The notes: generated by a model not told the origin, from the letters alone. Numbered from the stretch's first letter, positions 29,753 to 54,246 are shown. The stretch is 64,000 bases of DNA from a virus (IMGVR_UViG_3300029286_000013), one strand, 5' to 3'. A program made the numbers and translations.

Positions 29753-29761
29753 GGATAAACA

Positions 29762-32965: not shown

Positions 32966-33905
32966 TATTATTGATGTAGCAGACTTAGATTGCATTTATC
33001 TTAGCTATGATGAACCACAAAAAGAAGAATTTTGGCTTAAAGTCAAACACATGGTGCCTTGGGCAAAACGTGTTGACAATGTTAAAGGTAGTGATGCCGC
33101 ACACAAAGCCGCAGGTGAGGCAAGTGATACAGAACGCTTCATTCTAATTGATGGCGACAACATGCCAGAAGAAAGTTTTTTCAACATTCAATTAGACTTT
33201 ACAGGCAAAGACGAAAAGTTTAGACAAGCGCAGTTTCGTTGGAAAGCTATCAATAACATCAACGGATTGCGTTATGGTAATGGTGGCATGAGTTCATGGA
33301 CTAAAGAATATGTGGCTAACATGAAAACCCATGAACATCAGAAAGACGGAGATGTTTCACGTATTGCTGACTTCTGTATGGGAGGTGATGACAACTTGTA
33401 TTGGGCTATGTGGGATTGTTATTCAACTACATATCCAAACATGACACCATTCCAAGCTTGGCGTGCAGGTTTCCGTGAAGGTGTTAAGATGAGTTTGGAT
33501 AGAGGTGCACGCCCTACTGTAGACCAATTTAAAGAAACGGTGGCAAGTCGTAACTTAGACAATCTGACCATATGGCATAATGTTGGTATGGATGTTGAGA
33601 ATGGTGAATGGGCTATATATGGTGCTCGTCTTGGTACATATATGACTATGCTTACAGAATGGGATCACACTAATGTTCAATGGTTTGACAACTATATCAC
33701 ATTGTGGGAAGAACATGTGAATAGAGATCCTGTGCGTGAATCAGCATTGTTAGGAGCCGCACTACATGATAAACTAGGACTACCTATGGCTACATTAGAT
33801 GGCTTACAAAGTAAATTCTTTAAACGTCATTATGGGGCAGACAAATACAATCGTGGCCCACTGGTAACAGAGATGGAAGTTATTCGTCAGATTCAGGGCT
33901 GGTAA
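32952..33905 (+). CDS. GT-A-like nucleotide-diphospho-sugar transferase
   Basis: 'DCIYLSYDEP...RVDNVKGSDAAHKAA...RFILIDGDN' (DxD after a hydrophobic strand), 'LRYGNGG', 'AWRAGFREGVK'. Confidence 0.6.
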   Translation: MNSNDIIDVADLDCIYLSYDEPQKEEFWLKVKHMVPWAKRVDNVKGSDAAHKAAGEASDTERFILIDGDNMPEESFFNIQLDFTGKDEKFRQAQFRWKAINNINGLRYGNGGMSSWTKEYVANMKTHEHQKDGDVSRIADFCMGGDDNLYWAMWDCYSTTYPNMTPFQAWRAGFREGVKMSLDRGARPTVDQFKETVASRNLDNLTIWHNVGMDVENGEWAIYGARLGTYMTMLTEWDHTNVQWFDNYITLWEEHVNRDPVRESALLGAALHDKLGLPMATLDGLQSKFFKRHYGADKYNRGPLVTEMEVIRQIQGW

Positions 33906-35470
33906 TGAGCGGTGAGTACGACCAGTTTGCTAGAGACATGCGTGACCGCTTAAATGCGGTCAGTCCATCACTATGTCTTGCTAAATGGCAACAAGTATCT
34001 ATTCACTTGCCTAGTGGATTGACTCAAAGTTGTTATCACCCACCCACCCACAAGATACCATTGGAGTTATTGAAAGATAAGCCCAGTGTACTACACAATA
34101 CTCCTACCAAAATACACGAACGTAAACAAATGCTTGAGGGTAAACGTCCTGAAGGTTGTAGCTATTGTTGGAAAGTAGAAGATGCTAAAAGTGATGATCC
34201 CAAAGGTCATATGAGTGACAGACATTATCGCAGTAGTGAATGGTGGAATGCACCTACATTTGAAGAAGTCACTGAAAACAAGTTTGACTATGATGTTGTC
34301 CCTCGATATATAGAAGTCAATTTCAATCAAGCATGTAACTTTAAATGTATGTATTGTAGTCCACATCTTTCCAGTAGTTGGGAAGAAGAAGTTAAGAAGC
34401 ACGGTGGTTATCAATTAACCGGAATGACACATAATAACTTAGAAGCATTAGAACAAAAAGGAATGATGCCACTCAAAGTGTCTAATAAAGACAATCCTTA
34501 TGTTGAAGCATTTTGGCAATGGTTCCCTGAAATCTATCGTAAACTACGTGTGTTCAGAATGACAGGTGGTGAGCCACTTATGGATAAGAACACTTTCAAA
34601 GTCTTAGACTATGTGAATGAGAATCCACATGGTCAACTTGAGTTATCTATAACAAGTAACATGTGTCCTCCGGATCAAAAGTTATTTGACAAGTTTGTCG
34701 AGAAAGTTAAAGCATTAGAAGAACTACGCACATACGAGGATAAAGAAAACTTCAACGTACATAGTGGTAATAACTGGTACGTAGATAAAGGATTTAAACA
34801 CTTTTGGTTGTTTGTATCACTTGATGGGTTTGGCGAGCAAGCAGAATATATGCGTACTGGGTTAGAGTTTGAACGCATGTTGGATAACGTTAGAACCTTC
34901 TTGCGTGAGACAAAGTACAGTACTGTTAGCTTTATCAATACATTTAATATCATGTCCATTCCTAGCTTACATAAGTTCTTGGAGATGGTACTAGAGTTAA
35001 GAGCAGAGTTTGGTGGAAGAAGTCAAGTTGAATTTGAAATTGCACCCGAACAAACTGAGGTAGAAAAAGAGAACGACATTGTACACAAAGTTTATACCCA
35101 GAAGAAATATCAACGTGTATTCTTTGATATTCCAATACTAAGATACCCTCCCTGGTTCAGTATTCAAAATGCAGGACAATATGGTATCGATGAAGTAGAA
35201 CGTTGCTTAAAGTACATGGAAGATAATGTACAAGGTGACGACTATTTGGAAACATTCGAAGGCTTTAAACCATATGAGCTATTGAAAATCAAGCGAGACC
35301 TTGCTATAATGAAAGAATCTCTACCCCAGGATCAATTACTACTAAATAAAAAGAACTTCTACCTGTTCATCACAGAATATGATAGACGCAGGCAAACGAA
35401 TTTTATAGAAACATTTCCAGAACTAAAGAGTTACTGGAGAGAATGTATCAAAGCGCACACTAAACATTAA
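33905..35470 (+). CDS. Radical SAM enzyme 1, N-terminal Twitch-like domain (CxAKW subtype)
   Basis: CNFKCMYC (CX3CX2C), TGGEP; N-terminal CLAKW..SCYHP..CSYCW. Confidence 0.9.
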   Translation: MSGEYDQFARDMRDRLNAVSPSLCLAKWQQVSIHLPSGLTQSCYHPPTHKIPLELLKDKPSVLHNTPTKIHERKQMLEGKRPEGCSYCWKVEDAKSDDPKGHMSDRHYRSSEWWNAPTFEEVTENKFDYDVVPRYIEVNFNQACNFKCMYCSPHLSSSWEEEVKKHGGYQLTGMTHNNLEALEQKGMMPLKVSNKDNPYVEAFWQWFPEIYRKLRVFRMTGGEPLMDKNTFKVLDYVNENPHGQLELSITSNMCPPDQKLFDKFVEKVKALEELRTYEDKENFNVHSGNNWYVDKGFKHFWLFVSLDGFGEQAEYMRTGLEFERMLDNVRTFLRETKYSTVSFINTFNIMSIPSLHKFLEMVLELRAEFGGRSQVEFEIAPEQTEVEKENDIVHKVYTQKKYQRVFFDIPILRYPPWFSIQNAGQYGIDEVERCLKYMEDNVQGDDYLETFEGFKPYELLKIKRDLAIMKESLPQDQLLLNKKNFYLFITEYDRRRQTNFIETFPELKSYWRECIKAHTKH

Positions 35471-35478
35471 GGAATAAA

Positions 35479-37005
35479 ATGGCAGGCAAGAAACACGAAG
35501 AATCATTCGCACAATACAAAGCAAGACTTATTGACCCTATTAGCGATAGCTATTGTGCCGCTAAGTGGCTAAACGCTACAATATGGTTGGGTAACGGACA
35601 AACAACTAGTTGTCACCACCCATTGGGGCATCAAATTGATGCGGCAGAGTTACTCACTAATCCATCAGCAATTCACAATACTCCACATAAGAAGTATATG
35701 CGTAAGTTGATGCAAGAAGGTAAACGCCCACAAGAGTGTGAATACTGTTGGAAGATTGAAGATATTGGTCGTGATAACATGAGTGACCGTGTTTACAAAA
35801 CTGCTGTATTTGAAGAATCAGACATTCTTAAAACTGCTAAAGCTGATTGGCAAGAGAATACAATGTTGAAAACATTAGAGATTTCTTTTGACCGTACATG
35901 TAACTTTGCCTGTAGTTATTGCAATCCAAGTTTCAGCACAACATGGGTTAAAGATATTCACAAGTTTGGTCCTTATCGTAATATCGACGGTGATGCACGT
36001 AGTCACTTTATTAATGAAGCTGACCATGCTAAGCCATTACCAGATGACATTAACCCATACATTCAAGCGTTCTGGCGTTGGTGGGAAGAAGGACTTGCTG
36101 ACAACTTAGAAGAAATTCGAATTACAGGTGGTGAACCACTTATGGCTCCTGGTGTATGGAAGCTTTTTGAATGGTTCCGTAATAATCAAGAACGTGCCAC
36201 AAATCGTCCAGATGGTAAAGTATTACGTTATGCTATCAATAGTAACTTAGTTCCCAAAGATGATATTATGGACAAGTTAATTGAGTATAGTCACTTTGTC
36301 CCCTACATGGAAGTCTATACAAGCTGTGAAGCATTTGGTTCTCACGCTGAATATATACGTGATGGCTTTGATTGGAACAAATGGATTCATAACTTAGGTA
36401 GATTGCACACTGAAGGTAACATCAAAAAGACACACATGATGATGACTATCAATAGCTTATGTTTGTCTAGTATTGTTCAGTTCATGGATCAGATGATGGA
36501 ATTCAAAAAGATTCATAACACAGTTTATCCTACGATGAGCTTGAACATCTTGCGCTTCCCTAGCTTCCAATCTTGTGCTATGTTGCCAACAGAGATTCGT
36601 CAGAAGTATAAAGACCAATTGCAAGTATGGTTAGATAATCAGATTGCTATGGATTTCCGTACAAGTGATGGTAAACAAATGCTTATGAGCATTGAACGTG
36701 AACAGACTCAACGATTGATTGATTACCTTGACGTTATTAAGACTCCTCATAAGAATGTTAAAGACATTGAACAGAATCGTAGAGACTTTAAACAGTTCTA
36801 TGCTCAGTATGATGTCCGTCGTGGTAAGAACTTCCGTGCAACATTCCCGCCAGAGTTTGTTGCTTTCTATGATAGTATTCAAACAGAGTTGCCCACTGCA
36901 GAGGAAATTAACACACAAAATTATCGTCAAGGTGTTGATTTAATACCGGATCATCCGCCTGAAGATCCAAGTAAAGATGTGTTTGTTAATCCAGATTTAC
37001 AATGA
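35479..37005 (+). CDS. Radical SAM enzyme 2, N-terminal Twitch-like domain (CxAKW subtype)
   Basis: CNFACSYC, TGGEP; CAAKW..SCHHP..CEYCW. Confidence 0.9.
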   Translation: MAGKKHEESFAQYKARLIDPISDSYCAAKWLNATIWLGNGQTTSCHHPLGHQIDAAELLTNPSAIHNTPHKKYMRKLMQEGKRPQECEYCWKIEDIGRDNMSDRVYKTAVFEESDILKTAKADWQENTMLKTLEISFDRTCNFACSYCNPSFSTTWVKDIHKFGPYRNIDGDARSHFINEADHAKPLPDDINPYIQAFWRWWEEGLADNLEEIRITGGEPLMAPGVWKLFEWFRNNQERATNRPDGKVLRYAINSNLVPKDDIMDKLIEYSHFVPYMEVYTSCEAFGSHAEYIRDGFDWNKWIHNLGRLHTEGNIKKTHMMMTINSLCLSSIVQFMDQMMEFKKIHNTVYPTMSLNILRFPSFQSCAMLPTEIRQKYKDQLQVWLDNQIAMDFRTSDGKQMLMSIEREQTQRLIDYLDVIKTPHKNVKDIEQNRRDFKQFYAQYDVRRGKNFRATFPPEFVAFYDSIQTELPTAEEINTQNYRQGVDLIPDHPPEDPSKDVFVNPDLQ

Positions 37006-38402
37006 CAAATAAAATAATGCCAATATGGGGAACAGATGCTAAACCGCATCCAGATAGCCCCAATAAAGTATTTTGTATGGCACCCTGGACACATACCTAT
37101 ATCAGTCCACAAAGCGAACGTAGGATGTGTTGTGCTAGCAGAGAAGAACATTCATTTCAAAAGCAATATATTGATAGTAGTAACGATTCAAAGTATGGCG
37201 CTGTAACTGAAAGTAAAACTGCATTGGATGATTACCAACCAGTAAGTTTAAAAGAACACTGGAATAGTGACTACATGAAAGATATTCGTGTAAAACTAAT
37301 GCGAGGTGAAGAGATACCTCAATGTGATGTGTGCAATAAAAACTTATTGATGGAGGGTGAAAGCTATCGTGGATGGTTCACTGGCGTATTGTTTAAAGAT
37401 AAAATTCAACAAGCATTTGATACTACAGACGATACTGGATTCACTTCAATGGAGCCAATAAGTTTTGATTATCGTTTTAGTAATCTATGTAATTTTAAGT
37501 GTCGCATGTGTGGTGAACAATTAAGTTCAACATGGGAAACTGAAAAGAAGATTCATAATATGTGGACTCCTAAAAATCAACCCTTTATGGTTCCTGAAAT
37601 TAAATCAGCAATGCAAGACTTTCAACAAAATGTGGTTGAACCTGAATTTCGTGATGCAGTAAGTCGTGGTATCGTAGAAGAAATGTATTGGGTTGGTGGC
37701 GAACCATTGATGTATGATGTTCATTGGTGGACATTAGAAGAAATGTTAAAAAATGGCTCTGCCAAGAATTGCTATATGCGCTATAATAGTAATTTAAGTC
37801 GTGTTCAATTTGGTCAGAAAAACTTATATGACTACCTACCACATTACAAGGATTGGATGATGTGTGCTAGCATTGATGGTACAGGTGATATTGTAGAATA
37901 CATCCGTACTGGAATCAAATGGGACAAATGGTTAGAAAATTTTAAACAAGGTTTAGCATTGCCCGGTGGTAAAGACAAGATGAAGTTAGATTTGACTATT
38001 ACCGCACCCGGAATGTTCTCGTTAAAAGAGTTGTTTGATTTAAGCATTGAATTAGATGTTGAAATTATTACAAAGATTACATTTGCATTTCATCCAGATA
38101 TTATGTGGAGTCCAACTAGTTGGCCACGTGAAATATTAAATGAAATGGTAGATGACATACTTTTATATTGCGAATCACGTGCTACTTGGAAACAACGTAG
38201 TTTTATTGGCAATTTACAGGCATTAAAAGACAGCCGCAAAACGCATGAAGAAGAATGGCCTGATAAGTATAAAACTGCAAGATTGAATGGCAAACGTTGG
38301 GTTGAACACTTAGAAAAGATACGAGGTGATGAGAAAGTCACAATGCGTAACATATATAGTCGAAACCCTAAATTATTAACATGGTGGGATAGCATACAAT
38401 GA
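37002..38402 (+). CDS. Radical SAM enzyme 3, N-terminal Twitch-like domain (CxxPW subtype)
   Basis: CNFKCRMC, VGGEP; CMAPW..MCC..CDVC. Confidence 0.9.
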   Translation: MTNKIMPIWGTDAKPHPDSPNKVFCMAPWTHTYISPQSERRMCCASREEHSFQKQYIDSSNDSKYGAVTESKTALDDYQPVSLKEHWNSDYMKDIRVKLMRGEEIPQCDVCNKNLLMEGESYRGWFTGVLFKDKIQQAFDTTDDTGFTSMEPISFDYRFSNLCNFKCRMCGEQLSSTWETEKKIHNMWTPKNQPFMVPEIKSAMQDFQQNVVEPEFRDAVSRGIVEEMYWVGGEPLMYDVHWWTLEEMLKNGSAKNCYMRYNSNLSRVQFGQKNLYDYLPHYKDWMMCASIDGTGDIVEYIRTGIKWDKWLENFKQGLALPGGKDKMKLDLTITAPGMFSLKELFDLSIELDVEIITKITFAFHPDIMWSPTSWPREILNEMVDDILLYCESRATWKQRSFIGNLQALKDSRKTHEEEWPDKYKTARLNGKRWVEHLEKIRGDEKVTMRNIYSRNPKLLTWWDSIQ

Positions 38403-39094
38403 GTAAAAATATTTTAGTAGTGGGTGGAGGAACACCTGATAAATTTGGAAATCAATTTGTGAAAAAAGCCAGAGATGATGGTAATCGTGTAATAAATTTT
38501 TCATATAAGGATCACAATACTAATCACATAGATGATAGATATATCAACTATAGTGATACTAAACAAGTTAAAAGTAAATGTTTAGAATTGTCCAGTGAAC
38601 TATCCGTAATTGATATTATATTGTTTAATCAAAATGGATCAGGTTATCCAGGATTAGCAAATCAACTATTTAAAGAACCAAATCCTATTGAGTATGTTCA
38701 AACAATAAACAGAGCAGTAACTATTCCTCATCAAATTATTGCATCATTGTATGACAATTTAATTGTCGGCAGTAAAGTAGTATATATGGGTTCCACAATG
38801 TCATTTCAATATGAACGTGAAAATTATCCAGAAGGAGTGGGATATCCTAGCGCCAAATCATTTGCTATGCATTTAATATCAACCATGGCAAGATGTAGAA
38901 CAAAGGAAATTACCTTTAGTTGTATGTGTCCTTATTTCTTATATGATAAACCAGAATTGTACTCACACATTTTTGACCAAACTTACAGTTATATTTTAAC
39001 ACACGATGATAGTTTTAACGGAAAGATAGTAAATCAATTTAATGGATTTGAAAATCCATACGTACCGGGTAAAGTAGTTTATGCAAAACAATGA
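38399..39094 (+). CDS. Short-chain dehydrogenase/reductase (SDR)
   Basis: Rossmann start 'ILVVGGGTPDKFG', 'IDIILFNQ', 'VVYMGS' and catalytic-type YxxxK (YPSAK). Confidence 0.7.
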   Translation: MSKNILVVGGGTPDKFGNQFVKKARDDGNRVINFSYKDHNTNHIDDRYINYSDTKQVKSKCLELSSELSVIDIILFNQNGSGYPGLANQLFKEPNPIEYVQTINRAVTIPHQIIASLYDNLIVGSKVVYMGSTMSFQYERENYPEGVGYPSAKSFAMHLISTMARCRTKEITFSCMCPYFLYDKPELYSHIFDQTYSYILTHDDSFNGKIVNQFNGFENPYVPGKVVYAKQ

Positions 39095-40301
39095 TGACGT
39101 ATGGTGCGTATTGCCATGGTCACATTTATATGTAGGTCCTGATGGTAAAATTGCACCTTGTTGTGTAGGAAAACCATTAAATCAGTACGGGGATGCAAAG
39201 TTAGCAGAAGCATGGAACAGTGATGCCATGAAACAATTACGTGTAGACATGACAAATGGCATAAAAAATGATATATGTTCATCATGTTATAAAAAAGAAG
39301 ATATGGGATTTAAGTCAATGAGACAAAATTCTAATCGCACAATGAAAGATGTTGCGGACATAGTTAGGACAACAACGAATAGTGATGGATCAATTGATGA
39401 ATTTAAATTGTATTATTTAGATTTACGATTTAACAATCTTTGTAATTTTAAATGTAGGACATGTAATCCATTGTTTAGTAGTTCTATTGCAGTCGAGCAC
39501 ATACAAAATACTTCATTGAACAGATTTCACAAAACACCGGAACGTGGTATTACTCAAAATAAAAATATAATATCGGAAATAGAAAATCAATATCCTAATG
39601 TTACTAGGATATATTTTGCAGGTGGTGAACCAATGATGCAAGAAGAACATTGGAACATTTTAAAATATTATGTTGATAATGATACTGCTAAAAATGTCGA
39701 GTTAGTATATTCTACAAATACTAGTAGATTGACATATAAAAATAATTCAGTGTTTGATTATTGGAAACATTTTAAAAGTGTACATGTACAAACAAGCATT
39801 GATGCCGAAGGTAAAAGAGCAGAATATTGGAGAGACGGAACTGTTTGGGGAGACATACTTGCTAATATAAAACTTATTAAAGAAAGTAACGTTCAATGGT
39901 CTATACACAGTGTAATTTCTTGGGTTAATGTTTATAGTTACGTGGAATTAATTAAAACGTTATTACAAGAAAAATTATCATTAAGGTATAATTTTACCAT
40001 ATGGTGCTTAGACGAAAGCCATGAATTTAATCTACAAGAATTACCTGACTTTAAAAAACAAGAAATAGCAACTATGTTAGATACGTTTATCATAGATTTA
40101 GATGGGGGTAAATTTGGCAGATTTTTAGGTGGATCTGCAATAAAAACAAATATAGAAAATATTAAAATGTTTATGTTTTCTGAATCAATACCAATAAACA
40201 AAGAAAAATTTGAAAAACACTTCATACTAGATAGTATAAGAAATAAAGATTTTTTTGAATACTTCCCTGAACACGAAAATATGAGAGAATATATACAATG
40301 A
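39081..40301 (+). CDS. Radical SAM enzyme 4, N-terminal Twitch-like domain (CxxPW subtype)
   Basis: CNFKCRTC, AGGEP; CVLPW..PCC..CSSC. Confidence 0.9.
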   Translation: MQNNDDVWCVLPWSHLYVGPDGKIAPCCVGKPLNQYGDAKLAEAWNSDAMKQLRVDMTNGIKNDICSSCYKKEDMGFKSMRQNSNRTMKDVADIVRTTTNSDGSIDEFKLYYLDLRFNNLCNFKCRTCNPLFSSSIAVEHIQNTSLNRFHKTPERGITQNKNIISEIENQYPNVTRIYFAGGEPMMQEEHWNILKYYVDNDTAKNVELVYSTNTSRLTYKNNSVFDYWKHFKSVHVQTSIDAEGKRAEYWRDGTVWGDILANIKLIKESNVQWSIHSVISWVNVYSYVELIKTLLQEKLSLRYNFTIWCLDESHEFNLQELPDFKKQEIATMLDTFIIDLDGGKFGRFLGGSAIKTNIENIKMFMFSESIPINKEKFEKHFILDSIRNKDFFEYFPEHENMREYIQ

Positions 40302-41476
40302 GTAACACTCTATGCGTATTACCTTGGATGCATTTAGCCACACATCCAAACGGAGGCGCAAGCCTCTGTTGCCGTAGCAATCATACTGATGCGGTAAGTT
40401 GGGCAAAGAAATCTAATACACAAAATCTTGTCATGCTAGACGATGATAGCGTGGAAGATATAATGAACAGTGAAAAGTTTGTTGAAGTTAGACAAGCAAT
40501 GATTGACGGCAAACGACCTATTGAATGTGAAGGTTGCTGGAAAGATGAAGATGCTGGCATTAAAAGTAAACGCCAGTATGAGAATGAGCGTTGGGCACAC
40601 ATTATCCCTAAACTTGAAAAATCAGCAAAACTAAAAGACATTAATTTAATATATGTAGAGCTACGTTTGGGTAATGTGTGCAACAATGCCTGCTTAACAT
40701 GTAATAGTTATAGCAGTACTAAGTGGTACCCTGATGAGAAGAAGATTGCTAACGTATTACCTTGGTTTAAACTACGTGCAATGGAGAATTTCAAATGGTT
40801 TGAGAATGAAGATTTCTATTGGGATTTAGCAAACAAAAGTCAAAATGTAGAAGAAATCTATATCAATGGTGGTGAACCTACATTGATTAAGGCTCACTTT
40901 GAATACTTAAAGCACTTGATTACATTGGGTACAGCACAAAACGTTCATCTAGTTTATAGTTTGAACATGATGGATATACCTGACAGACTAATTGAGTTAT
41001 GGAAAGAATTTAAGCAAGTCACAGTCAATGCAAGCATTGACGATTTGGGTAATCGTAACTATTACATACGTTATCCTACTCAGTGGGAAGAAACAATAGC
41101 GAGTATTGAGAAACTAACTAAGTTGCCAAACTTAAATTGGCATGTAACACAGACTGTTAGCATTTTAAATATCTACCATCTAGCAGAGTTTGGTAATTGG
41201 TTGGAAACAAACTATAACAAAACACCGCATCACAACTATGTATTATACCCGGACTATCTAAGTATTGCGGCATTACCCGATTTTTATAAAGAAGAATTGC
41301 GTAGTCATTATGCAAACAGATTACATGAATGGCAACGCAAAGATTTATTAAATAAATTACATGAACCGTACCAGCCCGACTTGTTAAAGAAAGCAAAAGA
41401 ATTTATAATAGCAGTTGACAACGCACGTGGTTTAGATTATAATAACTATATACCAGAATTAAAAGATATACTATGA
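40298..41476 (+). CDS. Radical SAM enzyme 5, N-terminal Twitch-like domain (CxxPW subtype)
   Basis: CNNACLTC, NGGEP; CVLPW..LCC..CEGC. Confidence 0.9.
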   Translation: MSNTLCVLPWMHLATHPNGGASLCCRSNHTDAVSWAKKSNTQNLVMLDDDSVEDIMNSEKFVEVRQAMIDGKRPIECEGCWKDEDAGIKSKRQYENERWAHIIPKLEKSAKLKDINLIYVELRLGNVCNNACLTCNSYSSTKWYPDEKKIANVLPWFKLRAMENFKWFENEDFYWDLANKSQNVEEIYINGGEPTLIKAHFEYLKHLITLGTAQNVHLVYSLNMMDIPDRLIELWKEFKQVTVNASIDDLGNRNYYIRYPTQWEETIASIEKLTKLPNLNWHVTQTVSILNIYHLAEFGNWLETNYNKTPHHNYVLYPDYLSIAALPDFYKEELRSHYANRLHEWQRKDLLNKLHEPYQPDLLKKAKEFIIAVDNARGLDYNNYIPELKDIL

Positions 41477-42759
41477 TACCAATTATACCCGATAAAATTA
41501 AAGATTCATTCTGTTCAGCTAAATGGTTGATGGCCACTATGCATTTTGGTATGGGTGAGAATCACTCATGCTATCACCCACCTATTCATCGTTGGAACTT
41601 AGAAGATGTACAGCGTGATCCTAGTATGTTACATAACACCGCACACAAGATTGAACAGCGTAGACAGATGATGAATGGCGAGAAGCCAAAAGAATGTTAT
41701 TATTGCTTTGACATGGAATCAATCAATCCTGATGTTATCAGTGACCGCAAACGTTTCACTAATGAAGCATATGCTATTGAACGTAGACAAGAACTGATTG
41801 ATGCACCGTTTGATAGACACGTGAACCCAAGCTACTTGGAATTAAGTTTTAGTAATGTATGTAACTTTGGTTGTAGTTATTGCAGTCCGGGGCAATCAAG
41901 TAAGTGGGAGAACGAGGTACGCAAGTATGGAAGCTATCCAGTAGAGGATCCCACTGTTCATGCTGATAAATTACATGACATGCTCCCAGAAGATAACAAT
42001 CCATATATTGACGCATTCTGGAAATGGTTGCCTGACGCATACAAAGACTTGAAGTATTTGCGTATCACAGGTGGTGAACCATTGGCAACACGAAACTTTA
42101 TGAAGTTGTTAGACTTTGTATCACAAAATCATAATCCAAACTTAACATTAGTCGTTAATACAAACCTATGTGTGCCTGATAAAAATTTAAATATGTTCTT
42201 TGAAAAAGCAACAACACTATTAAACGCTAAAACTATCAAAGGTTTAGAAGTTTACACTAGTATGGATACATGGGGGCCTCAGGCTGAGTACATACGTGAT
42301 GGTTTAGATATTGCACGTTGGGAACAAACTGTACGCAAAGTCAGCACAACATTCCGTGTACCTATTCGTGTAATGGTTACATTTGGACTAATGAGTATCT
42401 TCAACTTTCAAACGTTTGCTGAGAAAATCATTCAAATGCGTAGTGAAGGTGTTGATATTATGTTTAACTGTGCAAGATTAGTTGACCCTAAACAGTTTGA
42501 TTTAAGAATACTTCCAGATTATTGTGACAAGTATTTTACCAAAATGAATACGTTTATAGTTGATAATGGTCAGATTGCAAATGTAGAACGTGAAACATGG
42601 CAGATGGTCTATGATTTTTGGAAAGCAAGACATGACACAATGACAACTGATGACCGTGAATGGCGTAGGCAACAGTTTGCAAAATTCATTAGTGAATATG
42701 ACAAACGCCGCGATAAGAACTTTGAAGAAAACTTTCCGGAGTTATCTGCATGGATCTAA
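41473..42759 (+). CDS. Radical SAM enzyme 6, N-terminal Twitch-like domain (CxAKW subtype)
   Basis: CNFGCSYC, TGGEP; CSAKW..SCYHP..CYYC. Confidence 0.9.
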   Translation: MIPIIPDKIKDSFCSAKWLMATMHFGMGENHSCYHPPIHRWNLEDVQRDPSMLHNTAHKIEQRRQMMNGEKPKECYYCFDMESINPDVISDRKRFTNEAYAIERRQELIDAPFDRHVNPSYLELSFSNVCNFGCSYCSPGQSSKWENEVRKYGSYPVEDPTVHADKLHDMLPEDNNPYIDAFWKWLPDAYKDLKYLRITGGEPLATRNFMKLLDFVSQNHNPNLTLVVNTNLCVPDKNLNMFFEKATTLLNAKTIKGLEVYTSMDTWGPQAEYIRDGLDIARWEQTVRKVSTTFRVPIRVMVTFGLMSIFNFQTFAEKIIQMRSEGVDIMFNCARLVDPKQFDLRILPDYCDKYFTKMNTFIVDNGQIANVERETWQMVYDFWKARHDTMTTDDREWRRQQFAKFISEYDKRRDKNFEENFPELSAWI

Positions 42760-45202: not shown

Positions 45203-45204
45203 TA

Positions 45205-46386
45205 ATGGATTTAACTCCCTATAAAAATTGTTTAGCATTAAAAAATAGTATTTTTATTGCTAACGAAGAAAAACCATATAGACCCTGTTGTTGGTTCAAA
45301 ACATACATAGATGCCACAGACATTAATGATTATAAACAACAACTTTCTGAAATGGATTTAGAATACAATTGTGATTATTGTATTAAACAAGACCAAGGCG
45401 GAAGTTATAGTTATAGACAAATGTTTAAAGATCCAAATGAAATGGTTATAACCGCATCATTCGACAATATTTGTAATTTAAAATGTGTTACTTGTACGCC
45501 TAATAATAGCACTCAAATTCTTGCAGAGAGATTTAAATTTGATGAGAAGGTTGATGCTGAATATACTAGAAAATATATTACGGAAGTAGTAGCTAAACAA
45601 GCTCCAAAAAAAATAGATTTTATAAAAACTACTTTAGCTAATGCTACATTTAATAGATTACGTTTTGATATATTAGGTGGAGAACCACTAATTAATCCGG
45701 CAATTTTTGAATTTATGGATTGGTTATCTGAACAACCGTATGCTAAACAAACTACGGTAGCTCTCACTACAAACGGCACGACTTATACAGATAAGCTAAC
45801 AAAATATTTAGACAAGTTTCTTAGAGTAGGCGTTCAGCTTAGTATAGATGGTATTGGTGAAGAGTTCGAATATTTACGCTACGGATCATCATTTGAAAAT
45901 TTAGAACAGGTGTCTAATAGTTTTTATGCATTAAAAACTAAATATTCTAATTTTGGAATAGGGGCACATTACACACTTTCTTGGATGAATTGTTTGACAT
46001 TTGCCGAATATTTTAATTGGTCACAATCTAATTACCCTGAGTTAGAAATATATGTTAGCAAATTACAAAGTCCCGATCATTATTCTATTGAACTATTATC
46101 ATTAGAAATGAGAGAAAAAATATTTGATGAAACAATGAAGAAGATAGCAACTCCGATTAATAAACATTATGAAAAGGCATTATTTTTGTATAAAGAACAT
46201 ATGCTATCTACTGCATACGATGAATATAATGAAAAATTATTACAGCATGGAATGTCCACATTGAACGTAATTGATTATAGACGTAATGCAGACCATAGAA
46301 AAATAATAAAAAACTTTGTAAATTTTCTATCACTATCTAAGAAAAATATTTGGTTTAATTATGTGACGGATACTAAACCGGTTTAA
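45205..46386 (+). CDS. Radical SAM enzyme 9, short N-terminal Twitch-like domain (MDLTP subtype)
   Basis: CNLKCVTC, LGGEP; NCLA..RPCCWF..CDYC; close paralogue of enzyme 7. Confidence 0.9.
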   Translation: MDLTPYKNCLALKNSIFIANEEKPYRPCCWFKTYIDATDINDYKQQLSEMDLEYNCDYCIKQDQGGSYSYRQMFKDPNEMVITASFDNICNLKCVTCTPNNSTQILAERFKFDEKVDAEYTRKYITEVVAKQAPKKIDFIKTTLANATFNRLRFDILGGEPLINPAIFEFMDWLSEQPYAKQTTVALTTNGTTYTDKLTKYLDKFLRVGVQLSIDGIGEEFEYLRYGSSFENLEQVSNSFYALKTKYSNFGIGAHYTLSWMNCLTFAEYFNWSQSNYPELEIYVSKLQSPDHYSIELLSLEMREKIFDETMKKIATPINKHYEKALFLYKEHMLSTAYDEYNEKLLQHGMSTLNVIDYRRNADHRKIIKNFVNFLSLSKKNIWFNYVTDTKPV

Positions 46387-46396
46387 TGGGATAATA

Positions 46397-47713
46397 ATGT
46401 TAGATAAAAAAATTGAAGATTTATCGGAACATTTTTGTAGTGTACCCTGGTTACAAATTCACACTGAGCCAAATGGTAAAGTGTTTCCTTGCTGTTATTA
46501 CAGCTTTGATGCAAAGCATGATTTAGGCAATTGGAATAAAGAAAAACTGGTTGACATATTTAATAGTAAAAAATGGAATCAACTTAGAAAAGATTTTTTA
46601 GATGGTAAAAAGCCAGAGGCTTGTACCCGTTGTTGGAAAGAAGAAGATTCAGGATCGACTAGTATGCGACAAAGATTTAACGAGCGATACTCTGACTTCC
46701 CTGACTATACAAATCAAAATGGCTATAATAAGCTAAAAGATATTATTACCTATACTAACGATGATGGGTCAGTTGACAATATTAAACTAGCTACTATTGA
46801 CTTGATTTTTAATAATCTATGTAATTTGAAATGCAGGTCATGTGGTCCCGGATTGAGCACGGGCTGGATACCGGATCAAATTAAGTTAGGTAGATATCAG
46901 ATTAATCCAACATCATTGATAACCAATGATGGTGTATTACACATGCAGGATGATTTAGACTATCTTATTGATATGATTGATCCCTACACAGAAATACATT
47001 TCAGTGGTGGTGAACCAATGATGCAAGAAGAACATTATTTGTTTTTAAAATTATTGGTTGAACGTGGCAAAACACAGACAAAAATACGATATAACACTAA
47101 TCTTACAGTGTACACTTTAAAAGACTATAATGCGTTTGAAATGCTACAGCATTTTGATAATGTGTTTATTGTGGGTAGTATTGATGCTATGGGTACTGAA
47201 GGAGAATATATACGTAAAGGCTTTGACTGGGAACTTGCTAAAAAATGGATAGAAACTGCTAAAAAATATTTACCCAAGGCTGACTATGGTATTAGTGCAG
47301 TATTCAGTTTGTTAAATTGTTACGGATCAGTTGATTTACATAGATACATGTGTGAAAGTGATGTATTTAAAAGACCAGATGGTAAAACTTTTGGATTTTA
47401 TTTAAACACGTTGCATTCCCCACCTCAATTACGAACTAAAATTTTGCCACCAAACGTAAAATTAGAAGTTACTGAAAAGATTAATAAACACATGGAATGG
47501 TTAGCAGAAACGCAAGAACATGATTTTAATTATGATGTTACTATCGCACATTGGAAAGATGCAATACTGTTTATGAACAGCGAAGATGAGAGTAACCACC
47601 TATCAAAATTTTATGTAGAGACAAACTTACTTGATGATATAAGAAAAGAACAATTTGGTGAGGTATTTCCTTACTTAGATTCAAAATTTAAAGAATATTT
47701 AACAAATGAGTAA
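46397..47713 (+). CDS. Radical SAM enzyme 10, N-terminal Twitch-like domain (CxxPW subtype)
   Basis: CNLKCRSC, SGGEP; CSVPW..PCC..CTRC. Confidence 0.9.
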   Translation: MLDKKIEDLSEHFCSVPWLQIHTEPNGKVFPCCYYSFDAKHDLGNWNKEKLVDIFNSKKWNQLRKDFLDGKKPEACTRCWKEEDSGSTSMRQRFNERYSDFPDYTNQNGYNKLKDIITYTNDDGSVDNIKLATIDLIFNNLCNLKCRSCGPGLSTGWIPDQIKLGRYQINPTSLITNDGVLHMQDDLDYLIDMIDPYTEIHFSGGEPMMQEEHYLFLKLLVERGKTQTKIRYNTNLTVYTLKDYNAFEMLQHFDNVFIVGSIDAMGTEGEYIRKGFDWELAKKWIETAKKYLPKADYGISAVFSLLNCYGSVDLHRYMCESDVFKRPDGKTFGFYLNTLHSPPQLRTKILPPNVKLEVTEKINKHMEWLAETQEHDFNYDVTIAHWKDAILFMNSEDESNHLSKFYVETNLLDDIRKEQFGEVFPYLDSKFKEYLTNE

Positions 47714-49034
47714 TAACTTTAACCCAGTTGAAATGGCAAAGAGTAGTAAAACGTTTTGCATCTTTCCGTGGATACAACAATACGTAGGCCCTCCCGGTGA
47801 CGTTAAACCTTGCTGTGTTTATGATAACAAAGACGAAATTGGTAGTCTTAAAGAAAACACATTAGCAGAGATTTGGAATAACGATAAAACAAAGCAAATG
47901 CGACTAAATTTCTTAAATGGAATAGAAGAACCAAGTTGTAGTATATGTAACCGTCGTGCAGAATTAGGACATGCACATAAGAATGAATATAATAGAATGT
48001 TCTTTGACACTGATGAAGAAATTCAAAAAATTGTAGCAAGCACTAATATAGACGGATCACTAGACGAACACAAACTATACTATATTGATGTTAGGTATAA
48101 TAATCTATGTAATTTAAGTTGCCGCAGTTGTGCCCCTCATTTTAGTACAAGTTGGGTAATGGATCATCGTAAGTTATACAACTTAGCTGAAAGACGAGAT
48201 AAAGATGACGGTTATCAGTTCCCGGGTAAAACTGAAGGTCAAGCATTAGAAGAAATTATTCCTCACCTTGCAACAGCAAAGATGATTTACTTTGCAGGTG
48301 GTGAGCCATTGATGCAAAAAGAACATTATGAAGTTCTTGAAAAATTAATTGAATTTGGAAACACCGATTTAGAGATTCGCTACAATACAAACTTCAGTAA
48401 TTTTAAACTAAAAAAATACGACAATGTATTAGAGTATTGGAAAAAGTTCAGCAACGTACACGTATATGCTAGCTTAGATGGTAGCCACGAAAAGGGTGAG
48501 TACTGGCGTAATGGTATAGATTGGAAACAAGTTGTAGAGAACCGTAAACAAATGATGGAAGAATGTCCGCACGTACATTTTATGATTTCATACACACTAA
48601 GTTGGCCTAATGCTTTTAACTTGGTAGAGTTTCATAGAGAATGGTCAGACTTAGGTTATCTAAAACCTGAACATATGATGGTCAATCCATTAGATACTCC
48701 ACCATACTATTGTTTAAAAAATATCCCAAACTGGAAGAAAACTGAGATTGAAGTAGCATTGCAAAAAAACATTGACTGGTTAAAATCTTTAGACCCGACG
48801 TTCGGAATCATAAGTATGTATGAAACTGCAATTAAATTCATGTGGGATGAAAATGGTCAATATTATAATGGAATTGATGAGAGTTTGAAAGAATTTAGTA
48901 AAATTACTACTAAGCTAGATGAAATTCGTGACCAAAATTTCTTTAAGGTGTATCCAGAACACATAAACATAAAGAATTATTTGATACACAATGAATTGAA
49001 TGTTGAATTTGATTATAGCAAATCCAAAAAATAA
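47706..49034 (+). CDS. Radical SAM enzyme 11, N-terminal Twitch-like domain (CxxPW subtype)
   Basis: CNLSCRSC, AGGEP; CIFPW..PCC..CSIC; close paralogue of enzyme 8. Confidence 0.9.
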   Translation: MSNNFNPVEMAKSSKTFCIFPWIQQYVGPPGDVKPCCVYDNKDEIGSLKENTLAEIWNNDKTKQMRLNFLNGIEEPSCSICNRRAELGHAHKNEYNRMFFDTDEEIQKIVASTNIDGSLDEHKLYYIDVRYNNLCNLSCRSCAPHFSTSWVMDHRKLYNLAERRDKDDGYQFPGKTEGQALEEIIPHLATAKMIYFAGGEPLMQKEHYEVLEKLIEFGNTDLEIRYNTNFSNFKLKKYDNVLEYWKKFSNVHVYASLDGSHEKGEYWRNGIDWKQVVENRKQMMEECPHVHFMISYTLSWPNAFNLVEFHREWSDLGYLKPEHMMVNPLDTPPYYCLKNIPNWKKTEIEVALQKNIDWLKSLDPTFGIISMYETAIKFMWDENGQYYNGIDESLKEFSKITTKLDEIRDQNFFKVYPEHINIKNYLIHNELNVEFDYSKSKK

Positions 49035-50287
49035 TGGACGAGAAGAAACTATTTAAGATAAGAGATGAGACAAGCGATACGTTTTGTCTTGCAAAATTTC
49101 ATGAGGCAAGTATCTGGGTTTACTCCGGTAAGATTGCCAGTTGCCATTACACTCCTTTTATTCAAGTAGGCAATACAGTAGATACATTCTATAATCCTGC
49201 GGAAAAACGTGAACAACAAAAGAAAATGTTAGCAGGAGAACAACCACCTGCATGTGATAGTTGCTGGCGTTATGAGAATCTAGGATTACGTAGCGACAGA
49301 ACACGTAAGAGTCTAAGCTTTAAGGATCACTTATCAGCAGAAGATTATAAGAACCCTAACTATGTATTCAAGCCCAAAGCATTAGAGTTAGCTTTTCAGA
49401 ATACATGCAACTTGGCATGTAGCTATTGTAGTCCACAGTTTAGTACAAGCTGGACTAATGATATCAGAGTAAATGGTGTTTATAAAGGCATCATTACTGA
49501 TGACCGCAGACATTATCAAAAAGATATCAACGAACTCAATGAGATGATAGACCCACCTGACATGACATTGTTCTGGGAATGGTTTGAGAGTGTTGCTACT
49601 AGTTTAGAATCTATCCGTGTCTCTGGTGGAGAACCACTGATGCACGAAGAAGTCTTTCGTGTATTTGAAATGATGACAGAGATAAACCCGAACATTGAAT
49701 GCGTGATACACAGCAACCTCTGCCAGAAGCCAGTAATCATGGATAGATTCTTTGACAAGATTAGTGGATTAACTAACTTGCGGATGAACATCAGTAATGA
49801 AAGTGCCGGTGAGACAGCAGAATTCATTCGTGAGGGTATGCTATACACTGAGTGGTTAGAGAATATCGAACGATTAGCAAACAGTACGGTCAGAGAGTTT
49901 AGTGTAAGTACAACAGTAAGTGCAATTGCGTTACAATCACTTGACCAAATGTATTTGGACATCATTGCTATACGCAATCGTTCTAAAGTAAAACCTTACA
50001 TCTCAATCAACATGGTTGATAAGCCAGACTTCCAAGGCTTTGCTTGTCTAACACGTGAAGAACGTGACTTTTACATTAAGAAGTATACAAAGTTTTACGA
50101 GTCAATTAAAGATGAGTTGTTACCAGTAGAACATGAACATTGTGCTAGATTACTTAAGTTTTTAGACGAGGGCTTCATTAAAGAAACCCAACCGCAACTA
50201 CGTAAAGACAGTGATATATTCTTTGAACAATATACACAGCGTAGAAACAAACCAGACAATTTAGCAAAATATATAGGATTAAGATAA
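49034..50287 (+). CDS. Radical SAM enzyme 12, N-terminal Twitch-like domain (CxAK subtype)
   Basis: CNLACSYC, SGGEP; CLAKF..SCHY..CDSCW. Confidence 0.9.
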   Translation: MDEKKLFKIRDETSDTFCLAKFHEASIWVYSGKIASCHYTPFIQVGNTVDTFYNPAEKREQQKKMLAGEQPPACDSCWRYENLGLRSDRTRKSLSFKDHLSAEDYKNPNYVFKPKALELAFQNTCNLACSYCSPQFSTSWTNDIRVNGVYKGIITDDRRHYQKDINELNEMIDPPDMTLFWEWFESVATSLESIRVSGGEPLMHEEVFRVFEMMTEINPNIECVIHSNLCQKPVIMDRFFDKISGLTNLRMNISNESAGETAEFIREGMLYTEWLENIERLANSTVREFSVSTTVSAIALQSLDQMYLDIIAIRNRSKVKPYISINMVDKPDFQGFACLTREERDFYIKKYTKFYESIKDELLPVEHEHCARLLKFLDEGFIKETQPQLRKDSDIFFEQYTQRRNKPDNLAKYIGLR

Positions 50288-51459
50288 TGGAACGAATGTA
50301 CGAAGTTAAAAACGTTAAAAGATTGCACATAGAATTGTCTAGTAGATGCAATGCTAGTTGTCCTGCATGTAGTAGAAACTATTCAGGCGGTCCTATTGCA
50401 GATGGTTTGGAACTAACTGACTTGTCATTGAGTGATATTAAACGTATGGTTCCAGTGGAAATAGCAAAGAATTTAATAGGCATTAACTTTTGTGGAAACG
50501 TCGGTGATCCAGGCATGGCACCAGACTTAATTCCTATATTAGAATATTTTAGAGAACATTCACCTAAGATAGTACAGCAACTTAGAACTAATAGTGGTAT
50601 GCGTAATGAAAAGTTTTGGACAACATTAGGTGAATTCTTTGTGAAACAACCTCCGCCTAGGGACAATCATTTGTTTAGTAAAGCCGGAGTTGTGTTTAGT
50701 GTAGATGGATTAGAAGATACTAATCACATATACCGAAGAGGTGTTATATGGGATAAACTAATCAGAAATATGAGGGCATACAGTGCGACCGGTGCATTTG
50801 CTGTATGGGAATGGTTATTATTTGAACACAATGAGCATCAAGTTGAAGAAGCAAGAACAATTGCAAAAGAGTTAGGATTTGAATTCATTGTTAAGAACCC
50901 GTTAGGATTCGGAGAGTATGAAGATTCACTAAGTGGTATGAACGTCTATGGTAAAGACGGTGACTATGAATACACAATTTGGCCTACTAAGTATACCGGA
51001 CACAGAAAAGAACCTTTGTTTGGTAAAAAAGTTGATTTTAGTTATATGAACAGACTAACTATTCCTATCTTACCTGAATTCAGTAAAGAGTTAGAAAAGA
51101 ATTCTAAGATAGTTTGTAAATCTATCGAACACTCTGAGTCAAAAGAAATATACATTTCAGCAAATGGATATATGCTCCCGTGTTGTTTCTTGGGTGGTGT
51201 GTTTGGTCAATTTCATAGTTCATACTCACGTTATCAATTTAACAAAATGATTAATGATTATGGATTAGAAGTATTCAATTTAAAGAATCAATCAATGCTT
51301 GATATTATTCAAGGTCCTGACTTTAGTAAGTTTTTCTTAGATGGATGGAAAGCAGATACGATTGAGAATGGTAAATTATTATATTGTTTAGAAACATGTG
51401 GACACAAGTCTGCTATGGATAAACTATACAGCACAAAAATGATAGAGGTAAACAAATGA
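50287..51459 (+). CDS. Radical SAM enzyme 13, conventional domain order with C-terminal Twitch/SPASM-like cysteines
   Basis: CNASCPAC near the N-terminus; 'FCGNVGDP' replaces GGEP; C-terminal VCKS..YISANGYMLPCC..CLETCG. Confidence 0.88.
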   Translation: MERMYEVKNVKRLHIELSSRCNASCPACSRNYSGGPIADGLELTDLSLSDIKRMVPVEIAKNLIGINFCGNVGDPGMAPDLIPILEYFREHSPKIVQQLRTNSGMRNEKFWTTLGEFFVKQPPPRDNHLFSKAGVVFSVDGLEDTNHIYRRGVIWDKLIRNMRAYSATGAFAVWEWLLFEHNEHQVEEARTIAKELGFEFIVKNPLGFGEYEDSLSGMNVYGKDGDYEYTIWPTKYTGHRKEPLFGKKVDFSYMNRLTIPILPEFSKELEKNSKIVCKSIEHSESKEIYISANGYMLPCCFLGGVFGQFHSSYSRYQFNKMINDYGLEVFNLKNQSMLDIIQGPDFSKFFLDGWKADTIENGKLLYCLETCGHKSAMDKLYSTKMIEVNK

Positions 51460-52930: not shown

Positions 52931-52933
52931 ATA
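52926..52933 (+). promoter_or_regulatory. Perfect T4 late promoter consensus TATAAATA inside the enzyme cluster
   Basis: At one of the few non-overlapping gene junctions, 5 nt before the ATG of rSAM 14. Confidence 0.6.
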
Positions 52934-52938
52934 GCTGT

Positions 52939-54246
52939 ATGATAAAAAAAACATTCCCTATACAAAATGATGCCGCTTGCTTATACAAATGGTCGTGGAG
53001 TACATTATTTTTAAGTAGAGGTACTACATCAAGCTGTCACCGAGGCCGTCATTGGAGATTAACTGAAGATAACTTTATGGATTTTCACAACCATCATGGT
53101 AAACTTGCTGATAGAGAAAAAATGGCTAGCGGGGAATGGCCAGGTAACGGATGTGAATACTGCAGGGATATTGAAAAGACTGGTGGTAAGAGTGATAGAA
53201 CAGGATTTGTTAACGAATCTATCGAATTATTACCGCCCGAGTTTGAAGGATATGTGCAACGTGCATATGAGTTTGAAAATATTCCATTAAAAGTTAGCCC
53301 CACACTACTTGAAGTTTATTTCAACAACGTTTGTAATCAATCATGTGTGTACTGTACCCCGGGTTTTAGTAGTCAGATTGAACAAGAGGTTCGTAAATTT
53401 GGACCTAGCGAGTTTAACGAAGATTATAGTACATGGCGTCCCGATAGTAAGTATGAATTATACAAAGAAAAGTTTTGGGAATGGATGGAAAAGAACAGTG
53501 AGCATGTACAAATCCTACAAGTATTAGGTGGAGAACCGCTGTATCAAAAAGAATTTGAACAATGTTTAGATTTCTTTGACAAGCATCCTAGACCAAATTT
53601 AGTATATCGCTCATTTAGTAATTTAAAACATGATCCTGAAAAGTTTAAAGCAAAGATTCAACGTGTGCAAAACTTAATAGACCAGGGTAAATTAAAGAGC
53701 ATGGAGTTTGTATGTAGTATTGATTGCTGGGGTCCTGAAATTGAATATGTACGTGATGGATTGATATTAACAGAGTGGGAACAAAATATGAATACGTTGT
53801 TAAATGCTCCGGGTGTAGGTGTATTAATACATGCAACGCTTACTGCATTAACATTACCTACATTGCATCAATTGATAGAGAAAACAAATGAATGGCGCAA
53901 AATTAAACCTACTGTTGGTATTAATTGGAATACTGTAGTTAGACCCTCAACATTTAATCCATACAACTTTGGAAAATATCTAGCACACTCTATTGATGCA
54001 CCAATTAAAGCATTAGAAAATTATAGCGATCCTATTGAAAGAGAAAAATTACAAACTCATTTAATGGGTATACAGCAACAACTATTAACTACTCCTGCAA
54101 ACAAGAAGGAAGTTAATGATTTTGCTAACTTCTTAGCTGACATAGACAAACGTAGGAATAGAGACTGGAAAGCAATATTTCCACAGATTGTGGACATAAT
54201 AAATACTATTAACAAAGAGGAGCCAGATTATGTTCAAGTGGATTAA
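52939..54246 (+). CDS. Radical SAM enzyme 14, N-terminal Twitch-like domain (CxxKW subtype)
   Basis: CNQSCVYC, LGGEP; CLYKW..SCHR..CEYC; perfect TATAAATA immediately upstream. Confidence 0.9.
   Translation: MIKKTFPIQNDAACLYKWSWSTLFLSRGTTSSCHRGRHWRLTEDNFMDFHNHHGKLADREKMASGEWPGNGCEYCRDIEKTGGKSDRTGFVNESIELLPPEFEGYVQRAYEFENIPLKVSPTLLEVYFNNVCNQSCVYCTPGFSSQIEQEVRKFGPSEFNEDYSTWRPDSKYELYKEKFWEWMEKNSEHVQILQVLGGEPLYQKEFEQCLDFFDKHPRPNLVYRSFSNLKHDPEKFKAKIQRVQNLIDQGKLKSMEFVCSIDCWGPEIEYVRDGLILTEWEQNMNTLLNAPGVGVLIHATLTALTLPTLHQLIEKTNEWRKIKPTVGINWNTVVRPSTFNPYNFGKYLAHSIDAPIKALENYSDPIEREKLQTHLMGIQQQLLTTPANKKEVNDFANFLADIDKRRNRDWKAIFPQIVDIINTINKEEPDYVQVD

Follow-up and report, generated by a model that had tools for sequence, protein, structure and literature searches.

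The closest described systems are radical S-adenosylmethionine (radical SAM, rSAM) enzymes of the SPASM/Twitch group, whose auxiliary domain is defined as a C-terminal extension of the catalytic core (PMC9012708). In BtrN, the 2-deoxy-scyllo-inosamine dehydrogenase of butirosin and the founding Twitch enzyme, the auxiliary cluster is fully ligated by four cysteines (PMC9012708). The window analyzed here, a stretch of 64,000 nucleotides from the viral contig IMGVR_UViG_3300029286_000013, carries an array of 14 rSAM genes at positions 33905-54246. In 13 of their products the auxiliary cysteines come before the CX3CX2C motif of the core. We read these 13 genes as intact, diverged N-terminal Twitch (N-Twitch) rSAMs in a late operon of the tail-fiber region that builds and tailors a glycan, acting on a hydroxyl-rich and most likely carbohydrate substrate. 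This reading is held with moderate confidence; we infer the glycan substrate, the identity of the acceptor and every chemical step from gene context and analogy.

All 13 open reading frames (ORFs) score above the curated cut-off (170 bits, for a model of 398 positions) of NCBIfam NF033640 (N_Twi_rSAM, “twitch domain-containing radical SAM protein”), at 181.1-358.7 bits. The match runs from approximately position 1 to 397 of the model in 11 of them, and begins at position 25 or 48 in the two assigned to subtype C (subtypes are described below). In all six subtype B proteins the Pfam SPASM model falls at the N-terminus. Their place in the radical SAM superfamily is evident from matches to PF04055, an invariant GGEP, and a model core that matches rSAM structures with Z 11-14. 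The invariant columns of the 13-way alignment (numbered by protein 1) are C24, C43, C85, C88, the CX3CX2C cysteines, GGEP, and R496, the last being part of a C-terminal D..R..F..FPE motif. The four N-terminal cysteines form the Twitch pattern CX~12GX4C...CX2C, placed ahead of CX3CX2C.

A SPASM domain with two auxiliary clusters was considered and rejected. Just four or five cysteines lie outside CX3CX2C, and no conserved C-terminal cysteine was found in the alignments of the 13 proteins or of the larger clades A and B; there is therefore room for one auxiliary cluster, as in Twitch but not SPASM. Having the domain before the core, 13 of the 14 proteins depart from the published definition of the group (PMC9012708) and are, judged by sequence, a permuted variant rather than classical members. 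The exception, rSAM 13, has the conventional order; its match to NF033640 is confined to the core (45 bits), and a hidden Markov model (HMM) of the N-Twitch domain found no clear match in its C-terminal domain (E 0.045). Pseudogenization of the 13 copies was also considered and rejected, as reading frames and all motifs are intact, without internal stops. The original prediction, made from the sequence alone, had proposed the inverted order in 13 of 14 proteins, the shared C-terminal motif, and the retention of CX3CX2C and GGEP without pseudogenes; family scores, Pfam placement and alignment agree with it on each of these.

The Twitch-like nature of the N-terminal domain, proposed at the same stage, is supported by sequence comparison and by a predicted structure. 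With a profile of subtype B against all PDB sequences, BtrN was the best match, query residues 6-83 aligning to residues 161-240 of the BtrN Twitch domain (E 6.5e-6), with cysteine on cysteine at the first, GX4C, and CxxC positions (overall pattern CX9-15GX4C...CX2C). The AlphaFold2 (AF2) model of rSAM 10, from a 147-sequence alignment (pLDDT 92.2, pTM 0.91), has a beta-hairpin (E20-23/E28-30) followed by helices within residues 16-97; a disordered linker (102-110) leads to the barrel core, and four helices make up the C-terminal region. BtrN and the phage proteins thus share the cysteine pattern and the four ligands, but BtrN has about 250 amino acids (aa) and a C-terminal Twitch, while the phage proteins have 384-521 aa, an N-terminal Twitch, and about 90 aa of additional helical sequence at the C-terminus.

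By this comparison, the N-terminal Twitch probably binds an auxiliary [4Fe-4S] cluster, fully ligated by cysteine. The four ligand cysteines, like those of CX3CX2C, are 98-100% conserved among 372 sequences of clades A and B. Where two cysteines are adjacent (the “CC” pair), the first is the ligand, as both the GX4C rule and the alignment to BtrN indicate; in subtype A, Y or H stands at the position of the second, with His next (93% in clade A). The clade signatures beside the second ligand are accordingly S-C-(Y/H)-H-P in A and P-C-C in B (second C 98%). The suggestion that the subtype A His alters cluster ligation did not hold up: since all four cysteine ligands are kept in both large clades, a BtrN-like, fully Cys-ligated cluster is the simpler reading. 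Beside the ligand there is a clade-specific conserved residue, His in A and an additional Cys in B and C.

The N-Twitch family would be a case of circular permutation in nature, relative to the well-studied SPASM/Twitch architecture. Two more rSAMs on the same contig, outside the window, place the core first and end in a Twitch with the G-x4-CC...CxxC signature of subtype B; the N-Twitch HMM matches this domain in both cases, and the heptapeptide GKVFPCC of rSAM 10 recurs in one of them. The contig thus has at least 16 rSAM genes, and the presence of both domain orders in one genome fits a circular permutation. The fusion of neighboring array genes is a plausible route to the permuted order. 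BtrN-sized rSAMs (241-256 aa) lie beside N-Twitch genes in Bacteriovoracaceae (L090:6967-7737, minus strand; L141:9090-9815, plus strand), and their C-terminal Twitch matches the N-terminal Twitch profile (E 1e-11 to 4e-10). Two or three complete N-Twitch rSAM units follow one another in many proteins of 790-1400 aa (e.g., L047:12686-15226, L102:3480-6800, P0001-P0028).

The architecture as such is already catalogued, in NF033640, and is not new to databases. Members of that family share the domain order of Twitch, rSAM core, and helical C-terminal region with a D..R motif; it is generically named as a “subfamily” and given no function, and a literature search turned up no publication on the family or on a Twitch at the N-terminus, in keeping with the earlier view that the family has no assigned function. 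The phage case differs in having 13 tandem paralogues in three deep clades. The family is large: 1.84 billion representative proteins, searched with a profile, gave 9,973 clusters (50% identity) at E<=1e-30, with many double and triple tandem fusions, and more than 518 viral stretches encode relatives. Viral loci of about 21 kb typically have arrays of 2-8 copies; 13 is at the high end.

Three subtypes can be told apart by motif: A, CxxK(W/F)...SC(Y/H)(H/Y/R)...CxxC (copies 1, 2, 6, 12, 14); B, CxxPW...CC...CxxC (copies 3, 4, 5, 8, 10, 11); and C, MDLTP..C..RPCCWF..CxYC (copies 7, 9). Relatives were taken from 80 viral loci and 80 loci of a bacterial and archaeal genome collection, and maximum-likelihood analysis of 459 full-length members recovered the subtypes. 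Nearly all of the 185 sequences in clade A (support 0.99) are viral; clade B (187 sequences) includes most of the genuinely bacterial sequences; copies 7 and 9, clade C, are sisters (support 1.0) on a long branch.

The copies themselves are 19-37% identical in pairwise comparisons. Orthologues of copies 1, 2, and 3 were found in 78, 48, and 34 viral loci, respectively (112 sequences for copy 1), and those of copies 1, 2, 3, and 5 span 11-78 other loci. In the orthogroups compared, 7-42 columns are at least 85% conserved inside each group yet different between groups, and many of these columns map to barrel strands or to the Twitch domain. This divergence, the orthogroups shared with dozens of viral loci, and the orthogroup-specific residues led us to reject gene dosage or recent duplication. 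Sequence evidence therefore supports old and specialized paralogues rather than dosage copies, and both the three motifs and the specialization read from the window alone were borne out. A look of local expansion is confined to copies 4, 8, and 11, which a small clade joins, and to copies 7 and 9.

Table 1. Array, cassette, and related genes; positions are those of the window unless a contig or locus is named.
Feature	Position	Strand	Remarks
Structural products, left part of window			gp5-like OB-fold protein, gp25, gp6-like baseplate wedge, 6404-aa giant protein, fiber with intramolecular-chaperone domain
Two fiber-like structural genes	28520..30715	+	410 aa with intramolecular-chaperone domain (Peptidase_G2/IMC, E 1e-5); 317 aa, Ser/Thr/Gly-rich
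Two paralogous GT8-like glycosyltransferases	31069..32642	+	267 and 257 aa
GT-A (GT2-like) glycosyltransferase-like protein	32952..33905	+	directly upstream of array; D67xD69 invariant in 46 sequences
rSAM 1	33905..35470	+	subtype A, N-terminal Twitch; NF033640 288.6 bits
rSAM 2	35479..37005	+	subtype A; NF033640 297.2 bits
rSAM 3	37002..38402	+	subtype B; NF033640 308.3 bits; Pfam SPASM at residues 25-112
SDR-like protein, 231 aa	38399..39094	+	adh_short E 5e-4, under curated cut-off; YxxxK motif (YPSAK in sequence)
rSAM 4	39081..40301	+	subtype B; NF033640 337.9 bits; SPASM at residues 9-70
rSAM 5	40298..41476	+	subtype B; NF033640 343.9 bits; SPASM at residues 6-81
rSAM 6	41473..42759	+	subtype A; NF033640 282.3 bits
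rSAM 7	42750..43904	+	subtype C; NF033640 183.5 bits
rSAM 8	43901..45202	+	subtype B; NF033640 341.4 bits; SPASM at residues 14-79
rSAM 9	45205..46386	+	subtype C; NF033640 181.1 bits
rSAM 10	46397..47713	+	subtype B; NF033640 358.7 bits; protein chosen for AF2 model
rSAM 11	47706..49034	+	subtype B; NF033640 351.8 bits; SPASM at residues 18-82
rSAM 12	49034..50287	+	subtype A; NF033640 243.4 bits
rSAM 13	50287..51459	+	conventional order; CX3CX2C at residues 21-28, Pfam SPASM at residues 284-350
Two SGNH/GDSL-like proteins	51456-52187, 52184-52930	+	243 and 248 aa; weak assignment
rSAM 14	52939..54246	+	subtype A; NF033640 233.5 bits
NodU/CmcH-type carbamoyltransferase	55164..56648	+	Carbam_trans_C 2.6e-48, Carbam_trans_N 8.2e-34
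Conventional-order rSAM outside window	G000:C1:3600-5600 (L163 546-1568)	-	
Conventional-order rSAM outside window	G000:C1:98800-101000 (L164 650-1528)	+	

The array consists of 17 tightly packed ORFs on the same strand, many with overlapping stop and start codons: the 14 rSAM genes, one SDR-like gene, and two weakly SGNH-like genes (Table 1). The SGNH-like pair have N-terminal GDS blocks (FGDSFAD, LGDSYTFGHG), and Lipase_GDSL_2 matches the second protein only at E 0.15. Upstream are three putative glycosyltransferases (GTs). With the family profile of the GT8-like pair, glycogenin-1 (GT8) is matched at E 6e-6; the aligned part is the nucleotide-binding half, in which the DxD region lies. The protein that immediately precedes the array was modeled with AF2 (pLDDT 90.5), and the Foldseek matches listed for the model are nearly all GT-A proteins (HAS, RmlT, TarP, PBCV-1 A64R, SunS). 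The two fiber-like proteins further upstream are candidate glycan acceptors.

The gene order is conserved in viral relatives: fiber, 317-aa Ser/Thr-rich protein, 101-aa protein, the pair of about 270 aa, a 111-aa protein (in some loci), the protein of about 310 aa, the rSAM array, an rSAM with C-terminal SPASM, and the carbamoyltransferase. These families were found in 45, 55, 58, 63, 18, 70, 81, 30, and 28 of 81 loci, respectively, and the synteny persists in viral loci whose first rSAM is just 36-88% identical. A sugar-nucleotide epimerase/dehydratase lies inside or just after the array in seven viral loci. A family of about 380 aa, present in 27 of the 81 loci and often inside arrays (e.g., L071:11313-12449; L163:94-543), has a conserved “F.TEKT.KP...PF” block, which we take to recall the GT10 fucosyltransferase motif; it gave no Pfam match and no PDB sequence match. 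Nor did the profiles of two array-associated families without Pfam matches find a PDB sequence match.

Bacterial relatives add two gene fusions. A 934-aa protein in the Bacteriovoracaceae metagenome-assembled genome (MAG) UBA6261 (L090:1060-3861, minus strand) joins a NodU/CmcH carbamoyltransferase, with both Pfam domains, to an N-Twitch rSAM, and is a Rosetta-stone link between two enzymes that are separate in the phage window. A 749-aa protein in a Hyphomicrobiales MAG (L131:8960-11206, plus strand) joins an FkbM-type methyltransferase to an N-Twitch rSAM. Carbamoyltransferases and FkbM methyltransferases both decorate hydroxyl groups. Loci in Bdellovibrionia have the order SDR, rSAM, rSAM, carbamoyltransferase. 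Sugar-related neighbors also accompany N-Twitch genes in Flavobacteriales (GT4, UDP-glucose dehydrogenase, an epimerase, and a carbamoyltransferase, among others) and in Alphaproteobacteria (two GT2 genes), and these loci count as independent evidence for the glycan reading. The conserved synteny with GT, SDR, SGNH, and carbamoyltransferase genes and the bacterial fusions together argue for a hydroxyl-rich, probably glycan, substrate; BtrN, too, has a sugar-like substrate, as would suit the carbohydrate-type context of the array.

If so, the three GT-A-fold glycosyltransferases would attach or assemble sugars on an acceptor made by the phage, plausibly the adjacent Ser/Thr-rich fiber proteins. 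In each rSAM paralogue the CX3CX2C cluster would cleave SAM, and the resulting 5′-deoxyadenosyl radical would take one specific C-H hydrogen from the sugar structure. The auxiliary [4Fe-4S] cluster of the N-terminal Twitch might then accept an electron, in a BtrN-like dehydrogenation, or the radical might be quenched from the other face, giving epimerization. The product could next be reduced, acylated or deacylated, and carbamoylated by the SDR-like, SGNH-like, and carbamoyltransferase proteins. By analogy with BtrN (PMC9012708) and with the sugar epimerase NeoN (as cited in PMC10991966), the likely chemistry is abstraction of a C-H hydrogen at a specific site and then oxidation or epimerization.

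A more specific version can be imagined, in which glycans are edited in place by radical chemistry. Common, host-derived sugars would be put on the fibers and then turned into rare ones by position-specific N-Twitch dehydrogenases or epimerases together with the tailoring enzymes; gain and loss of paralogues would change the surface chemistry combinatorially, and Cys (B, C) versus His (A) beside the ligand would separate epimerizing from oxidizing members. We regard this as speculative and, taken as a whole, doubtful.

Several points weigh against a glycan substrate. The viral loci were picked through similarity to copy 1 and are thus largely of one lineage, which weakens the argument from viral synteny. 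The GT-A fold matches of the protein upstream of the array are weak (E about 4e-4 to 7e-3), and the SDR-like and SGNH-like assignments lie under curated cut-offs. In Vibrio phage K566 and Ralstonia phage RsoM2USA, the cassette GT families were not found near the N-Twitch relatives. Neighbors in 24 dereplicated bacterial loci are heterogeneous, with glycosyltransferases making up only about 6 of 111. Loci in Alphaproteobacteria, where the N-Twitch gene is accompanied by PqqD, an HprK-like kinase, two GT2 genes, NTP_transf_5, and an ABC exporter, look peptide-directed (the FkbM fusion sits within such a cluster). In Paenibacillus polysaccharolyticus (L103:8023-17172), a lone N-Twitch rSAM lies near two genes with ketosynthase domains and a FabG-like SDR (by Pfam), a context like that of a type-II fatty acid synthase, which suggests that some family members act on lipids. 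(The same cluster, as far as can be read from its sequence, also has two small ORFs resembling acyl carrier proteins, dehydratase-like genes, and a thioesterase-like gene.) The proposed chemistry, finally, is an analogy with BtrN-type enzymes, and most characterized SPASM/Twitch enzymes modify peptides.

The structural comparisons bear on this last point. The core of rSAM 10 groups with SPASM/Twitch-type enzymes. Its top match was BlsE, a sugar-nucleoside decarboxylase (Z 14.2, root-mean-square deviation 3.4 Å over 220 residues), followed by SuiB, CteB, anSME, viperin, SkfB, and MoaA at Z of about 13; Foldseek gave a similar picture. BlsE and DesII, which was listed too, both edit sugar moieties by radical chemistry, but identity to the phage rSAM is 10-16%, the auxiliary domain is differently arranged, and the Z value is within about 1 unit of that of peptide-modifying enzymes. 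SuiB, CteB, anSME, and SkfB fall within about 1-1.5 Z units of BlsE, a further point on the negative side for a carbohydrate target. These four belong to the same superfamily branch as the phage proteins, resemble them in the core in sequence and structure, and also have an auxiliary cluster; they differ in having it in a C-terminal domain, and maturases of RiPPs (peptides made by the ribosome and modified after translation) usually have an RRE, whereas the phage cassette has no evident RRE or precursor gene.

A serious rival, though on balance less likely, is that the rSAMs modify protein or peptide directly: the fiber proteins or the 6404-aa giant protein would acquire cross-links, epimers, or oxidized side chains, one site per paralogue, with the glycosyltransferases working in parallel. 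The structural matches, which include EpeE and PqqE among the best, are what would be expected, as are NCBIfam side-matches that are mostly to peptide maturases, the company kept by the Alphaproteobacterial homologues, and the position of the array directly behind structural genes. TPR repeats between the two units of one double rSAM (in L102) would suggest protein binding. A direct protein target fits less well with the recurring partners and fusion partners, which are hydroxyl- or sugar-decorating enzymes, or with BtrN, a cyclitol dehydrogenase, as the closest solved sequence relative of the Twitch domain. A search for PqqD/RRE domains in the phage operon genes scanned gave no match, and no precursor gene is obvious there; PqqD is adjacent in the Alphaproteobacterial homologues only. 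Lack of an RRE is still compatible with a protein substrate.

The presence of viperin and MoaA among the structure matches, and weak generic side-matches to the prokaryotic viperin and MoaA models, raise the question of a nucleotide or DNA target, through a viperin- or MoaA-like reaction or DNA hypermodification. We consider this highly improbable: the viperin and MoaA model matches are limited to the shared SAM-binding core and far under the family cut-offs, the genes scanned in the operon and its flanks included none for nucleotide metabolism or DNA modification, and the partner genes are glycosyltransferases and a carbamoyltransferase.

A further explanation is that the array makes something other than a virion component during infection, such as a host-envelope glycolipid or lipopolysaccharide or a diffusible secondary metabolite, and that it lies next to fiber genes by the accident of a hypervariable site. 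Its bacterial counterparts would be the lipid- or natural-product-like clusters: in addition to that of Paenibacillus, loci in Flavobacteriales, with 1-3 copies, have GT4, UbiA, GDSL, carbamoyltransferase, UDP-glucose dehydrogenase, and epimerase genes, and also PhyH and WelO5-like oxygenases. GDGT-MAS, an rSAM that couples lipid tails and for which an N-terminal auxiliary cluster is described, matches moderately, and array content differs strongly among related phages. The order of fiber, GTs, and array is nevertheless kept across distant relatives; the ORFs are translationally coupled, through overlapping stops and starts, to a structural operon on the same strand; and lipid-synthesis or export genes were not found among the cassette genes scanned. 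We find this explanation improbable.

Returning to the tailoring of a virion glycan, the nearest viral parallel in the present comparisons is the capsid glycosyltransferase A64R of chlorovirus PBCV-1, matched by the GT-A-like protein upstream of the array; both viruses bring their own glycosyltransferases. We know of no described viral glycosylation system that includes radical SAM enzymes, let alone a 13-copy array. What is new is the phage array embedded in a glycosyltransferase cassette, the architecture itself being catalogued yet biochemically unexplored, in a family of some 10,000 clusters without a characterized member. Since they combine many diverged, intact paralogues with candidate partner enzymes in one operon, the phage arrays offer a good entry to the substrate and chemistry of the family. 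Should a virion glycan prove to be the target, the array would be, to our knowledge, the first radical-SAM-based viral glycan tailoring described, and would bear on how giant phages diversify their fibers; if it is a protein, RiPP-like chemistry would extend to phage structural proteins.

The window spans bases 28381-92380, on the reverse strand, of an IMG/VR virus contig of 116 kb, whose completeness is estimated at about 33%. Its baseplate wedge protein is 30-40% identical to those of jumbo myoviruses of 340-490 kb (e.g., Atu_ph07, Phosso, Salmonella phage Munch, Salicola phage SCTP-2), and the source therefore appears to be an uncultured marine relative of the Rak2/Atu_ph07-like jumbo-phage group. 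A nucleotide search against cultured phages gave no near match. Among the proteins of cultured phages, the sole relatives are 22-25% identical and are found in Vibrio phages K566/K567 and Ralstonia phage RsoM2USA, with uninformative annotations; K566 has four matches to the family within about 7 kb, three of them annotated as radical SAM, and RsoM2USA has one or two. PHROGs gave nothing useful for the neighboring genes.

Some minor features can be added. One subgroup of N-Twitch proteins (L043:13786-15501, L058:13771-15477, P0051/P0061/P0078/P0082/P0104/P0105/P0116) has an N-terminal extension of about 130 aa before the Twitch; neither it nor the larger fusions had a significant match to PDB sequences (for the extension, ARF GTPases at an insignificant E of 0.03). 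Terminator-like sites in the window are only about two standard deviations over the shuffled expectation and do not mark operon boundaries, and promoter-like sites show no excess over the shuffled expectation. The T4-type late promoter TATAAATA was rejected as an enriched signal, with 6 sites in the window against 13.9 expected. One of these T4-late-promoter-like sequences, TATAAATA at positions 52926-52933, precedes the start of the last rSAM gene (52939) by 6 nt.

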